Shown here: positions 2,266 through 29,614 of the stretch, in pieces
Layout: each line of letters starts with the position of its first letter
Numbering within the stretch: position 1 is the stretch's first letter
Origin: an uncultured Bacilli bacterium
GTDB lineage: Bacteria; Bacillota_I; Bacilli_A; RF39; UBA660
Reading direction: 5' to 3'
DNA: 64,000 nucleotides
Assembly: GCA_944358415.1 (NCBI GenBank)
Contig: CALVRA010000004.1
Span: 3,311-67,310 of the forward strand
Made by a program: the position numbers and the translations under genes
Notes under the pieces: generated by a model
What the model was told of the DNA's origin: nothing
The model's database searches: none
Seen by the model: only the letters and a program-made list of their open reading frames with translations

Positions 2266-3369
2266 TTATATTTTCGATTTATATATGAAGTAACCACAGT
2301 GTGCTCTCATGAAATATCCTTTATAACTTGCTTTTACTAAGGGATATCTTGGAGAGTTTTTCTTTTTTAGTCTTCTTAGTTTTCGTTTTACACGTTTTTT
2401 TGTTTGATTATTAATTAAAACGATTAGTTTTTTATTTTTTAGGAAAAATTTATAGCCTAAGAAGTTGAAACCTTTTTTCATATCATATATTTGAGTTTTT
2501 CTATTTAATTTAAGTTTTACTGTTTCTAAGTATTTTTCAATTTCTTTTAGGCAAAATTTTAAGTATTCTTTATCATGATAGAATAAAATAAAGTCATCCA
2601 TATATCTGATATAGCATTTGATTCTTAAGTTTTCTTTTATGAAATGATCTAAACCATTTAAGTAATAAACGGCTAGAATTTGACTTGTTTCGTTACCAAT
2701 TGGAAGACCTGTTCCTTTTTTATATCTAGGGAGTCTTGATAATTCTATTTTCTTTTTTTCTATATCAGTGATATTTTTGCTTTCTAATTTTTTTATTTCT
2801 GTTTGAATGAGTTTATTTATTAATTCATTGATATTTTCATTATCGGTACTAGATATGATGTTAGAAAGAAGATTTAAAATATCTTGATCTTTAATATCAG
2901 CTGATAGTTTTTCTAATAGTACTTGATGGTCAATGTTATAGAAATATTTACTAATATCACATTTTAAGACATAGAAATTATCATATTTCATTTTCATTTT
3001 ATTGATATATTTTTTTGTATAGTAAAGTCCCATTTTATTTCCTTTCCCTTTTCTTGTAGCAACATTCATTTCGATTAATTTAGGGCTTAAAGTTGGAATT
3101 AGGATATATTTACTAACTAGATGGTTAACAATTTTATCTTTAATATTTTCACTCATAATGATACGATATTTAGGAATACTTATTAAAAATACACTATAAT
3201 CACTATGGGAGTATGTTTTTGCTTTTAATTGGTTTAAAACATTTATTACATTGCATGAAAAAGCAAGTTCAAACCGAACGAGCTTTTCTTTATGTTTAGT
3301 ATTTGAATATATATTTTTATAAACATCTATTATACGATCTATTGACAGTATATCATTATATTTAATCAT
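2266..3369 (-). CDS. DGR-type reverse transcriptase
   Basis: 367 aa with 'ATRKGKG', 'CDISKYFYNIDH', 'LPIGNETSQILAVYYLNGLDHF' (the DGR-typical I/LGxxxSQ motif), catalytic 'IRYMDDFILF' and 'FLGY'. Preceded by an Avd-like gene. The 4-nt overlap with the upstream ORF suggests one operon. Confidence 0.88.
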   Translation of the reverse strand: MIKYNDILSIDRIIDVYKNIYSNTKHKEKLVRFELAFSCNVINVLNQLKAKTYSHSDYSVFLISIPKYRIIMSENIKDKIVNHLVSKYILIPTLSPKLIEMNVATRKGKGNKMGLYYTKKYINKMKMKYDNFYVLKCDISKYFYNIDHQVLLEKLSADIKDQDILNLLSNIISSTDNENINELINKLIQTEIKKLESKNITDIEKKKIELSRLPRYKKGTGLPIGNETSQILAVYYLNGLDHFIKENLRIKCYIRYMDDFILFYHDKEYLKFCLKEIEKYLETVKLKLNRKTQIYDMKKGFNFLGYKFFLKNKKLIVLINNQTKKRVKRKLRRLKKKNSPRYPLVKASYKGYFMRAHCGYFIYKSKI

Positions 3370-4007
3370 TTAATTCCTACACTTATTAGTTTGTATCCAC
3401 CAATACTTTTTTTATAGTTATATACTTGCATGGTTCCTTGGTCTAAAAGTTCACTGACTGTTTTTTTTGTATAAGGGCCTATTTCTTTATCAGAAAGGTC
3501 ATATACTGTATTATCTTTGATATAACCAGATTTAACATTTACTTTTAATTCATCAGTACCAGTGAATCCATATAGTTTAGTTATATAGTGTTTATCACAT
3601 GTCGCTTTAGTTTTAGTTATTTTGCCATTAGAGGCAGTATATTTATATCCATTAAAGTTATAAGTAAAGTTTTCTTGAATATTGTCAGTTATTTTAGATG
3701 CGATTTTTTTATAGTCATCAAAACTAACGTTATCTTTTAACATGTCTTCTTTATCCATTTGTGAAAAGATTAAGTATAATATGGTTTTTGAGTCCATTTC
3801 ATCTATGTTTTCGTCTTTAGTAATATATGTGATATCACTACAATTATTTTCTAGTTTATCTATATATAAGTTTTCAACGATATTATGATCAACTGGTTTT
3901 AGTTTATCTTCTTTCATAAGTATAAATAAGATAAGTGCAATTATTATAATTAAAATAATTATTACACATATTATGATTTTAGTTTTCTTCTTTTCTTTTA
4001 AGGCCAT
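3366..4007 (-). CDS. Membrane-anchored hypothetical protein inside the DGR operon
   Basis: 213-aa ORF with an N-terminal TM helix (IIICVIIILIIIIALILFIL). Overlaps avd by 29 nt and the RT by 4 nt. No recognisable family. Confidence 0.6.
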   Translation of the reverse strand: MALKEKKKTKIIICVIIILIIIIALILFILMKEDKLKPVDHNIVENLYIDKLENNCSDITYITKDENIDEMDSKTILYLIFSQMDKEDMLKDNVSFDDYKKIASKITDNIQENFTYNFNGYKYTASNGKITKTKATCDKHYITKLYGFTGTDELKVNVKSGYIKDNTVYDLSDKEIGPYTKKTVSELLDQGTMQVYNYKKSIGGYKLISVGIK

Positions 4008-4323
4008 AAACCATCCTCCTTATTTCTAATAAAAACTTACTAATTACTTCAAATTGATGTCTACTAATGATTTTTTTATCATATGAGATTCTTGTATAAA
4101 AATCACTCATTGATAATTTTACTAATAAATCTTTTAAGTGTTTTTCTTTAATTCTTAAACTATCATTTATATTATAGGCAAATATGCATTCTATTAGTTC
4201 ATAATTATTTTTTTCAATATTTTGTTTTAATATTATTTCTTTTTTAGGGTAATTAATTAATATTTTATTAATATAATTAATTGTTTTATAAGTGTTATTT
4301 AACACTTTAAAATTGTAATTCAT
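3979..4323 (-). CDS. avd: Avd-like accessory variability determinant (four-helix-bundle family)
   Basis: 114 aa, basic and predicted helical. Shows 'NYPKKEIILKQNIE...ELIECIFAYN...IS..QFEVISKFLLEIRRMVYGLKR', matching the Avd / 23S-IVS four-helix-bundle pattern (FPKxE...; ...EIxRMxxGW). Lies immediately upstream of a DGR RT. Confidence 0.7.
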   Translation of the reverse strand: MNYNFKVLNNTYKTINYINKILINYPKKEIILKQNIEKNNYELIECIFAYNINDSLRIKEKHLKDLLVKLSMSDFYTRISYDKKIISRHQFEVISKFLLEIRRMVYGLKRKEEN

Positions 4324-4396
4324 ACTTCTTTTTATTGTTTTATTGCATTTAGGAAAGGGAAAAAATTTTATAAGTTTAGTTTTTTTAATATAATGT

Positions 4397-4424
4397 GTGG
4401 CTGAGGGGGATTAGCCCTCACCAC
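4397..4424 (-). other. GC-rich hairpin in the target-avd intergenic region
   Basis: Minus strand reads GTGGTGAGGG-ctaatcc-CCCTCAGCCAC: a ~10-bp stem with one bulge. It is conspicuous in an otherwise AT-rich 278-bp spacer and has no U-tract after it. Confidence 0.4.
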
Positions 4425-4601
4425 TAATATAGTCACAGTTTTATAAATTATTTTAAGTCATAAAGCATCTATATTATCTTTTTAGGCTGTGCCAGGGAAT
4501 TAACCTTGTTTCCAATCTAAATTTGATTATTACTTAACGTAATTACTTCCTCTCGTTATTGGCCGTAGCCTTATAACACACGGTTCGTTAGTAAATACTT
4601 A

Positions 4602-4735
4602 CTAACTGTAGTAGGAAATTGGGCGGACGCCGTAGCCGTTGTAGACATAGCTGTTGCAAAGAGTACCTGGACTGCAGACATAGAACTCGCGAGCACTGCT
4701 ATCATCGTTGAAGAGCGACGGCGTCATAGTCCAAT
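4602..4735 (-). repeat. VR-like GC-rich 3' segment (no cognate TR found in window)
   Basis: Abrupt GC-rich island. About 19 of 34 codons end in C (NNC), as expected for AAC-templated mutagenesis. Shares GTCCGCCC (Val-Arg-Pro) with the TR/VR at 28.4-28.9 kb, and has the same codon spacing from TCG to GTC CGC CC. Confidence 0.55.
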
Positions 4736-28274: not shown

Positions 28275-28343
28275 TTAATTTTTTCCTCCTTTGTATAAGT
28301 ATATCATTTTTAATGATTTTTATAAAGATGTTTTGAATAGTAA

Positions 28344-28373
28344 TAGAAAAACTCGGTATTTTTTCCGAGTTTA
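28344..28373 (-). terminator. Rho-independent terminator immediately 3' of the template repeat
   Basis: Minus strand: ACTCGG-aaaaaata-CCGAGT followed by TTTTT, starting right after the TAA of the TR pseudo-ORF. Confidence 0.65.
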
Positions 28374-28382
28374 TTTGATGAG

Positions 28383-28547
28383 GTATGGATTTGACTGGGT
28401 TCCAGTTCCTCCTGTAATTTGGACATCAGAGGAAAGAGTTATGGCAGGGCGGACCGCGTTGTTCGTATTGTTCGCGTTGTTGTTGTTGACGTTGCCGTTG
28501 TTGTTCACATTGAACACGTTGTTAGAGTTACTAGAATTAGGCGACAA
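28383..28547 (-). repeat. DGR template repeat (TR)
   Basis: 165-nt copy of the 3' end of the adjacent gene. The core is dominated by AAC/AAT codons (pseudo-ORF '...NSSNSNNVFNVNNNGNVNNNNANNTNNAVRPAITL...'). Differences from the VR fall almost exclusively at TR adenines. Confidence 0.88.
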
Positions 28548-28681
28548 GCAAAACAGTCCAAACATATTAGTATTGCCCCATATATTGTGCCAAAAATATT
28601 TTTTCGGCCATGGCGAGGCATTCGCCCCGCTACCAAACTCCTATCGGAGTTTGCGAAATCATTCTATCCACTGTTTTATTC

Positions 28682-29614
28682 TTAACTCAAAGTGTATGGA
28701 TTTGACTGGGTTCCATCTCCACCAGTGATTTGGACATCAGAGGAAAGAGTTATGGCAGGGCGGACCGCATAGAACGCATAGCTCGCGTCGTAGTCGTTGA
28801 CGTAGCCGTTGTTGTTCACAACGAACACGTTGCGAGAGCTACCAGAAGCAGGCGACAATGTCCACCAATGACTATTTGAATCAAACATCCAATCACTATT
28901 CTTACATGTACGATAATTACTATTATATGTACTTAATGTTTTACAGCTTGTATTTGAACATGCTCTTATATATTCACTTACTGTTGGTAAGGCTACTTTT
29001 ACTTTAGATGTTGTTCCTTTTTCATCATTTATTTGATCTTGCATATCATTATTATTCCATGTTACTGCACCTGCATAATATGTAGCTTCTACTATTTGAC
29101 TTTTGGCAACACTTGTTAGACTATAATAATATGTACCATTTAAATATATATTAAGGGTTGCTGGTTGATTCCACTTGTTTGAATTTGATGTGTCCCAAGC
29201 TAAATTATCAGATGTATTTATCTCTTCATCCCTCATTATCTTTATTGTTCCATCTGAATTTATAGATATGATTCTCCAGCCGGCTTTCTCATTATTAAAC
29301 GTTACATAATTATTGGGATTGGCTCCTTTATAAGTGTATTTTCCATCTTCATATTCATCTTTATATAATCCATCTCCTGATGTTACTATATCTACATTAT
29401 CTAATATTGTATCTCCGGTTGTTGGTGGGAAACAGACATTATAAAGTTCATCTATGGCTCCTTGGACGTTATTTGAATTAAGGCCACTTGAAGTATTTGA
29501 ATATGATACTTCATTTGATGGGAAAGTGACTGCTGCACACACCACTACTCCACTTACTATAATTCCGGCAATTATAAATCCTATTAGATTGGTTTTTATA
29601 TATTCTTTTTTCAT
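28682..29614 (-). CDS. DGR target protein (310 aa), membrane-anchored with C-terminal variable region
   Basis: N-terminal TM anchor plus 'FPSNEVSYSNTSSGLNSNNVQGAIDELYNVC'. Scaffold 'GANPNNYVTFNNEKAGWRIISINSDGTIKIM'. The C-terminus 'WWTLSPASGSSRNVFVVNNNGYVNDYDASYAFYAVRPAITL...' corresponds to the VR that matches the TR. Confidence 0.88.
   Translation of the reverse strand: MKKEYIKTNLIGFIIAGIIVSGVVVCAAVTFPSNEVSYSNTSSGLNSNNVQGAIDELYNVCFPPTTGDTILDNVDIVTSGDGLYKDEYEDGKYTYKGANPNNYVTFNNEKAGWRIISINSDGTIKIMRDEEINTSDNLAWDTSNSNKWNQPATLNIYLNGTYYYSLTSVAKSQIVEATYYAGAVTWNNNDMQDQINDEKGTTSKVKVALPTVSEYIRACSNTSCKTLSTYNSNYRTCKNSDWMFDSNSHWWTLSPASGSSRNVFVVNNNGYVNDYDASYAFYAVRPAITLSSDVQITGGDGTQSNPYTLS
28694..28858 (-). 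repeat. DGR variable repeat (VR) cognate to the TR at 28383-28547
   Basis: Collinear 165-nt match to the TR at a 311-nt offset. The variable core is 28769-28849. About 18 of 19 core mismatches are at TR adenines. Confidence 0.88.

Follow-up and report, generated by a model that had tools for sequence, protein, structure and literature searches.

Among the closest described counterparts of the loci treated here is the diversity-generating retroelement (DGR) of Bordetella phage BPP-1, with the order mtd-avd-TR-spacer-brt (TR, template repeat). Template-primed synthesis of cDNA requires its spacer, between the TR and the reverse transcriptase (RT) gene, in cis (PMC6182149). We analyzed a 64-kb stretch of contig CALVRA010000004.1 from an uncultured Bacilli bacterium (the window; G+C ~29%), in which an initial annotation had described one DGR split between an RT/Avd operon and a distant TR. 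The window probably holds instead the remains of two DGRs of different lineages, each cut by recombination. It resembles BPP-1 in having an Avd-partnered RT that carries the [LIV]GxxxSQ motif, in adenine-specific changes from TR to variable region (VR) at a surface-protein C-terminus, in the GC-rich 3′ boundary of information transfer and in a structured RNA directly 3′ of the TR. Unlike in BPP-1, the TR and RNA of the window lineage precede avd instead of separating it from the RT gene, a 213-aa gene is inserted additionally between these two, and the RT locus of the window has no TR at all, while its RNA element has no detectable Rfam similarity.

Silent-cassette antigenic variation, as in Neisseria pilE/pilS and Borrelia vlsE, draws on partial-gene cassettes beside one expressed gene. 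Sister strains of the window organism likewise keep a tandem cassette store beside one gene with a rewritten variable segment, but there the signature is adenine-specific, the cassettes have TR-type flanks by an RT/Avd operon, and no gene-conversion machinery is implied. Remote targets, and targets left over after loss of the core DGR, are known in Treponema denticola (PMC4891356). Partial DGR loss leaves in both cases VRs that differ from known TRs mostly at adenines; unlike in Treponema, a TR is left here without an RT and an RT/Avd pair without a TR, and the breakpoints can be read as recombination of a TR with a VR (or VR paralogue). DGRs carrying at least two TRs number 53 cases in surveys (PMC11661182), and a Stenotrophomonas DGR has two (PMC6642488). 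The systems described below share the presence of more than one TR per RT, but differ in having 7-10 tandem non-coding cassettes per single VR, with a cognate cassette that varies by strain, and in one genome (L037) five tandem units of TR and RNA. DGR surveys usually demand that a repeat lie no more than ~1 kb from the RT (PMC8144416), so that loci like these are missed or, as happened here, mis-paired.

DGR Components of the Window

Every DGR-related feature of the initial annotation is found where it had been placed. It had overlooked that the 3′ end of the 773-aa gene (4620-4723) is a VR and that a TR-flanking RNA is kept at 4463-4626. The components are the following.

2266-3369, minus strand: DGR-type RT, intact, of the lineage labelled type 1 here (Pfam RVT_1; motifs IGNETSQ and YMDD)
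3366-4007, minus strand: 213-aa protein with a hydrophobic N-terminal segment, overlapping avd and RT (from translation; no Pfam match)
3979-4323, minus strand: accessory protein Avd (bAvd PF22296, E = 1.5e-11)
4463-4626, minus strand: structured RNA element, named Sp (alignments, RNAalifold and covariance model R1)
4620-4723, minus strand: VR1, at the C-terminus of the 773-aa target (13 adenine-only mismatches to the cassette L002:4664-4767)
4602-6923, minus strand: target gene 1, 773 aa, with a PKD/Y_Y_Y-like middle (Pfam; comparison with sister strains)
28349-28372, minus strand: terminator-like hairpin after TR2
28383-28547, minus strand: TR2, chimeric template repeat with an A-rich core and a VR-type tail
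28548-28693, minus strand: conserved VR-TR spacer of 146 nt with hairpins, a promoter-like TTGGCA-18-TAATAT and the GGGGCAATACTAAT motif
28694-28858, minus strand: VR2, the C-terminus of T310 (mutagenized core at about 28754-28858, then a 60-nt tail that reaches almost to the stop codon)
28682-29614, minus strand: target gene 2 (T310), DUF6273 protein of 310 aa with a hydrophobic (transmembrane-like) N-terminal segment (PF19789)

The RT carries both the [LIV]GxxxSQ and the YxDD motif of the DGR clade and is accompanied by Avd. Its closest solved structure is the reverse transcriptase 8ub7 (E = 3e-25), and its homologues adjoin TR/VR pairs in dozens of loci. The order on the minus strand is 773-aa gene, 280-nt gap, avd, 213-aa open reading frame (ORF), RT. 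Close relatives have an ORF of 213-218 aa at the equivalent position between avd and RT. This interval was considered as a TR and rejected, being a genuine ORF; its product may be an uncharacterized DGR accessory protein. No second RT or Avd was found in the window by phmmer against six-frame ORFs.

Only one TR/VR pair exists in the 64 kb, at 28383-28547 and 28694-28858. An exhaustive adenine-tolerant scan of all diagonals in direct orientation revealed no further pair in the window, and neither did blastn on both strands with an adenine-bias filter, inverted orientation included. The initial annotation was thus right that the sole TR lies ~24 kb from the RT behind a different target gene, with parC, parE, leuS and rpsD in between, and that no TR stands beside RT or avd, on which the scans and the conserved 213-aa ORF agree. 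A cryptic TR beside the RT was sought and none was found: adenine-tolerant matching of the VR1 region to the whole window gave A-rich noise only, and this candidate was rejected. The RT accordingly has no TR within 24 kb, and the template of VR1 is not within the window. A GC-rich motif, GTCCGCCC, occurs only three times in the window, at 4621, 28447 and 28758. VR1 was also tried as a target of TR2 and rejected, the nucleotide sequences not being alignable past the GC-rich motif.

Tandem Templates in Sister Strains and the Origin of VR1

Relatives of the RT were collected by scanning a genome collection with an RT alignment; 80 loci were scanned for adenine bias and their TR copies counted. 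Loci and contigs are cited here by their L numbers. The window RT is placed among gut Bacilli; its named relatives include Candidatus Coprosoma, Mycoplasma sp. CAG:956 and CAG:776, and, with 84% identity, Firmicutes bacterium CAG:822. Relatives of this RT have large targets (770-940 aa) and an RNA of the R1 type. The usual order in the close ones is target(VR), ~280 nt, TR, conserved non-coding element, avd and RT; a TR upstream of avd and followed by Sp is found in about 30 relatives, and a MutS-like gene (msl) sometimes precedes avd. An RT locus of this lineage is thus normally equipped with a TR, or an array of TRs, that separates the target from avd; here these templates have been lost by a deletion.

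The identical RT protein was found in 17 contigs by exact protein lookup. Two of them, L001 and L006, have the layout of the window. In L002, L003 and L007, whose flanks are 98.8-99.6% identical to those of the window, the 786-aa target and avd are separated by 1.8-2.6 kb without genes, as against 280 nt in the window. This stretch is a non-coding tandem array with a period of ~160 nt (L002:3430-5740, L003:3370-5520 and L007:700-2200; the collapsed window equivalent is 4602-4323). Each unit has a 5′ motif GGGATTAATCT, a cassette of 104-110 nt (CGCCGTCG…GGCTACGGCGTCCGCCCA) and the tail ATTTCC. Pattern search counted 10 cassettes beside the VR in L002, 10 in L003 and 7 in L007. The gene VR of these strains has the tail GTTATCAATC…, while the tail of the last cassette, ATTTCCTACTACAG…, continues into the conserved sequence upstream of avd.

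The VRs differ among the sister strains, and each array-strain VR has an exact cognate within its own array that differs from it at cassette adenines only. The comparison of VRs with their cognates is as follows.

L002 VR: cognate cassette 5460; non-A mismatches 0; A mismatches 10
L003 VR: cognate cassette 5243; non-A mismatches 0; A mismatches 9
L007 VR: cognate cassette 2090; non-A mismatches 0; A mismatches 9
Window VR1 (4620-4723): cognate cassette L002:4664; non-A mismatches 0; A mismatches 13

Given the high identity of the flanks, three different cassettes have been used as template within one species. Some cassettes of the arrays are A-poor (VR-like) and still conserved between strains. 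Arrays occur also in other relatives (8 cassettes in L030, 4 in L034, 5 in L037, 3 in L058, 2 in L041 and 2 in L054), most loci having one TR. Tandem arrays of 7-10 TR cassettes per single VR were not found described in the literature searched.

VR1 is a genuine VR, copied from a template now lost from this clone. All 13 of its mismatches to the L002 cassette fall at cassette adenines and none elsewhere, and its tail is ATTTCCTACTACAG, that of the last cassette, and not the gene-type GTTATCAATC. The 773-aa protein lacks the native C-terminal tail of the 786-aa sister version; its gene ends with GGCGTCCGCCC, and its C-terminus (…YWTMTPS…YGVRP) is similar to the VR domain of T310. VR1 is fused directly to the TR-type tail and to Sp, and so occupies the place expected for the TR. 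As VR1 carries the TR-type tail, the usual difference between the 3′ end of a VR (initiation of mutagenic homing, IMH) and that of a TR (IMH*) is absent here. This junction is what would be expected had a deletion joined the VR to the last cassette. Locus A (2.3-6.9 kb) would then derive from a type-1 DGR with the normal order target(VR), TR or TR array, Sp, avd, orf213 and RT, in which recombination between the VR and the last TR cassette deleted both the native C-terminal tail of the target and the entire array, leaving the VR fused to Sp with a TR-type tail.

A fusion of the same kind has arisen independently in a species whose RT is 84% identical: in L012 the last cassette has become joined to the target gene, and cassettes are retained in L013 and L014. 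The fused cassette (L012:5770-5870) is almost adenine-free, and the fusion ends the target gene at an early stop codon. L014 has lost the target gene itself and retains its 3′ untranslated region besides the cassettes. An IS605-family OrfB/TnpB gene lies between the RT and a superoxide dismutase gene in L002 (L002:8211-9359) and is absent from the window.

A Structured RNA Directly after the Template

The Sp element comes after the TR in every type-1 relative and can be aligned across loci whose RTs are only about 50% identical, and sequence conservation extends beyond it to about 4330. It folds into a multi-helix junction closed by pairing of TTCC, directly after …CGCCCAATTTCC, with the GGAA of AGATTGGAAACAAG. 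Of the 29 pairs predicted by RNAalifold, 13 show compensatory changes; 98.9% of cells are paired, and the observed covariation was reached by none of 500 shuffles. The R1 covariance model has one match in the window (4463-4626, 175.9 bits; the next best scores 12.6 bits) and 40 copies in 84 other loci, every one right after a TR (loci L030-L108). The five TR and RNA units of L037 repeat with a 336-nt period, and L030 has three RNA copies. No Rfam family was found for Sp or TR2, the leuS T-box being the only match, and no RNA element of the Sp type was found described in the literature searched.

By analogy of position Sp may be the counterpart of the TR-RT spacer of BPP-1, and it is a candidate scaffold for recruiting RT-Avd. 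The statement of the initial annotation that the spacer RNA is absent is correct for TR2, near which the R1 model finds no Sp element in the window, but wrong for the RT locus, where the element is present.

The Distant Target and Its Template

TR2 and VR2 are direct repeats of 165 nt, 85% identical, in which 21 of the 24 mismatches fall at TR adenines, a difference typical of a DGR. The 105-nt core, with 36 A in TR2, has 18 A changes and one C>T. From the GC-rich end TR2 equals VR2 over 40 nt, whereas the VR and TR ends of intact relatives differ (CGCCCAGTT vs. CGCCCAATT); the two ends therefore show no IMH/IMH* difference from which the direction of transfer could be read. The last 12 nt of TR2, its stop codon and its terminator are those of a DUF6273 gene that abuts the Bax1-I gene in other strains. 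The terminator that had been predicted 3′ of the TR is indeed present (hairpin at 28349-28372, minus strand), and it is the native terminator of this paralogue. T310 has more than 1700 homologues, often several in one genome.

Contigs with an identical neighbouring Bax1-I gene form two groups. TR2 and VR2 are present, in identical form, only in contigs 100% identical to the window throughout (L011, L020 and L024). Other strains, with flanks ~99% identical, have two HTH plus DUF6273 modules at the site of locus B and no TR. Comparison of 28275-29742 with L021-L029 shows that the interval from HTH/GH3 to Bax1-I varies between strains: it contains a single DUF6273 gene, two of them, or genes that end differently, and a divergent HTH gene accompanies each. 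The DUF6273 gene of L029 has a VR-like end (GCCGTCCGCCC) and no adjoining TR. Within the window, a 734-aa gene has an internal DUF6273 domain (4e-41 to T310), and short fragments resembling the T310 N-terminus are found at 6917-7138 (minus strand) and 35968-36195 (plus strand).

The native context of this TR family is preserved elsewhere. L018 and L111 have the same spacer (89-90% identical) and a TR behind a T310 homologue, broken by mobile elements; in L018 the spacer is 89% identical while the proteins are 72% identical. The 3′ end of their TR runs into a different non-coding sequence, then a MutS_I-like fragment, then avd. L114 matches the window at 100% identity over the spacer and over the initial 36 nt of the TR; its VR is a different A-mutagenized copy of TR2 (18 of 19 differences at A), and its TR, internally deleted, leads into the native 3′ element and then msl (L114:1213-1560). 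L115 is intact: its VR is followed by hairpins and by a TR set between the same 5′ flank and 3′ element as above, after which come msl, avd and RT. This intact DGR of the T310 type was reached only through a search with the msl protein. Searches for an intact compact DGR with a T310 homologue via P0009, P0011 and P0027 gave loci with no TR or with TRs disrupted by mobile elements, and the conserved VR2-TR2 spacer had no match in JGI metagenome contigs. The enzymes of L115 are only distantly related to those of the window (47.6% identity for RT, 34% for Avd) and its 3′ RNA is different, so that TR2 and the window RT are of different lineages.

Judged by its VR-type tail and paralogue end against the native 3′ context in L111, L114 and L115, TR2 is a recombinant, a TR core joined to the end of a downstream paralogue, with its own RNA element and enzyme genes lost. 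Locus B (28.3-29.6 kb) would be the target and TR part of a second DGR lineage, whose intact form has the order target, spacer, TR, own 3′ RNA, MutS-like gene, avd and RT. Recombination of the TR with the 3′ end of the downstream DUF6273 paralogue would have eliminated the enzyme genes together with the native 3′ RNA and given TR2 its VR-type tail. Both events would be direct-repeat recombination of a TR with a VR or a VR-like paralogue, one of which lost templates and the other enzymes.

Since both junctions lie in repeated sequence, and contigs L011 and L024 break at VR/TR, the missing array and the chimeric TR2 were also considered as repeat-driven assembly artefacts. This is hardly credible and we reject it. 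The same junctions are found, 100% identical, in independent assemblies (L001, L006 and L020) from different studies and assemblers, the stretch shared at the VR1 junction is only about 18-24 nt, and VR1 is an A-mutagenized derivative and not a copy of any cassette.

A further alternative is that a second RT, encoded in another part of the genome and belonging to the TR2/VR2 lineage (msl-avd-RT, perhaps accompanied by a master copy of the TR), serves TR2/VR2, for which the window RT would have no role. Related genomes often carry two or three DGR RT loci: the metagenome-assembled genome E08__bin338 (GCA_944329545.1) has three distinct ones (L115, the type-1 L036 and L083), and CAJLEF01, CAG:956, BRZ_KF bin17 and Lapin-022 bin6 have two each. 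The near-identical spacer and TR 5′ end of L114, at another locus or in another strain, fit this explanation, and remote targets are well documented (PMC5758913). Yet the close relatives L114, L116 and L018/L111 are themselves decayed or lack avd-RT, and neither the 64 kb nor the 3.3 kb that L001 adds beyond its start encodes another RT. We regard a second RT as a possible but rather unlikely explanation.

One Split DGR or Two Truncated Ones

The reading from which the analysis started is that of a genuinely split DGR: TR2 RNA, transcribed at a distance of 24 kb either from the promoter in the spacer or through read-through, would be copied by the RT/Avd encoded at 2-4 kb, which would diversify T310 in trans. 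The window has a single RT and a single TR, the TR2/VR2 differences are A-specific, and a promoter-like site stands just upstream of TR2 with a terminator behind it. The GGGGCAATACTAAT motif of the spacer is common to the TR 5′ flanks of both lineages. In BPP-1, avd, TR and brt are functional when carried on a plasmid, as cited in PMC5758913.

This proposal nevertheless meets several obstacles. TR2 has neither the type-1 Sp nor the 3′ RNA of its own lineage, whereas the BPP-1 spacer is required in cis. The enzymes cognate to the TR2 family share only 48% (RT) and 34% (Avd) identity with those of the window. An active system should, by analogy with BPP-1, also mutate TR2, whose end equals that of VR2, yet 36 A are kept in its 105-nt core. 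This expectation goes back to the IMH and IMH* of BPP-1, reportedly from the 2004 work of Doulatov and colleagues. No VR2 variant of this clone was found, and the T310 protein cluster, which has a single member, contains none; with the contigs of the clone 100% identical, however, this carries no information. Use of TR2 by the window RT would need acceptance of an RNA of another lineage, with neither 3′ element present and with TR2 itself spared, which makes use in trans unlikely. One DGR whose TR RNA is used in trans by the RT/Avd of the window, as the initial annotation had it, does not agree with a TR2 that belongs to another lineage and is a recombinant, and we consider a genuinely split DGR improbable. 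It is likewise quite improbable that the RT/Avd of this clone, its own array lost, still diversifies T310 by copying the chimeric TR2 in trans. If it did, this would be a natural heterologous and physically split DGR, with RNA recognition independent of a cis 3′ element.

Several observations weigh against two truncated DGRs, the explanation that we favour. RT and Avd are intact and TR2 retains all its AAY codons, so that they could still function. The TR 5′ flanks of one lineage have a hairpin and a GGG..AAT.CT motif in common with those of the other, which makes some cross-recognition conceivable. Direct adjacency to Sp is not strictly required in the type-1 lineage, since the cognate cassette often does not touch the RNA element (it is the second to last in L002 and L003, the first of 4 in L034 and the 5th of 8 in L030). 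L114 and L116, relatives of locus B, have msl without avd-RT behind it (in L116 the genes after msl are rpsF-ssb-rpsR), a situation that the split reading can also claim; such RT-less template modules could be tolerated or served in trans. Finally, no contig of this clone differs from another in VR1 or VR2, but these contigs have 0 SNPs (single-nucleotide polymorphisms) over 6.8-13.4 kb each and so say little on activity. Different VRs from the same templates are seen in the sister strains L002, L003 and L007, and also in L114. Two truncated DGRs of different lineages remain in our view the probable origin of the window, and we infer that neither VR is diversified in this clone by the window's own parts.

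Other Features of the Window

Three further features lie apart from the two loci. The T-box leader (136 bits) is located upstream of leuS.

27360-27560, minus strand: T-box leader
13208-20117, minus strand: large paralogous surface-protein genes with long internal and mutual repeats
36320-36463: 12-nt tandem repeat of ~10 copies (GCCTTCTTTT[AT]T-like), inside the minus-strand ORF 36221-37228

Significance for the Biology of DGRs

On the interpretation favoured here the window is a clear natural example of DGR decay, in which direct-repeat recombination between TR and VR deletes templates or enzymes. The template arrays and the conserved RNA are more novel results than the split itself. Libraries of up to ten TR cassettes, different members of which rewrite the same VR in one species, would multiply the sequence space that can be reached. 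The covarying RNA, which lies against the TR throughout a large gut Bacilli clade and is absent from Rfam, makes the question of template recognition directly testable.

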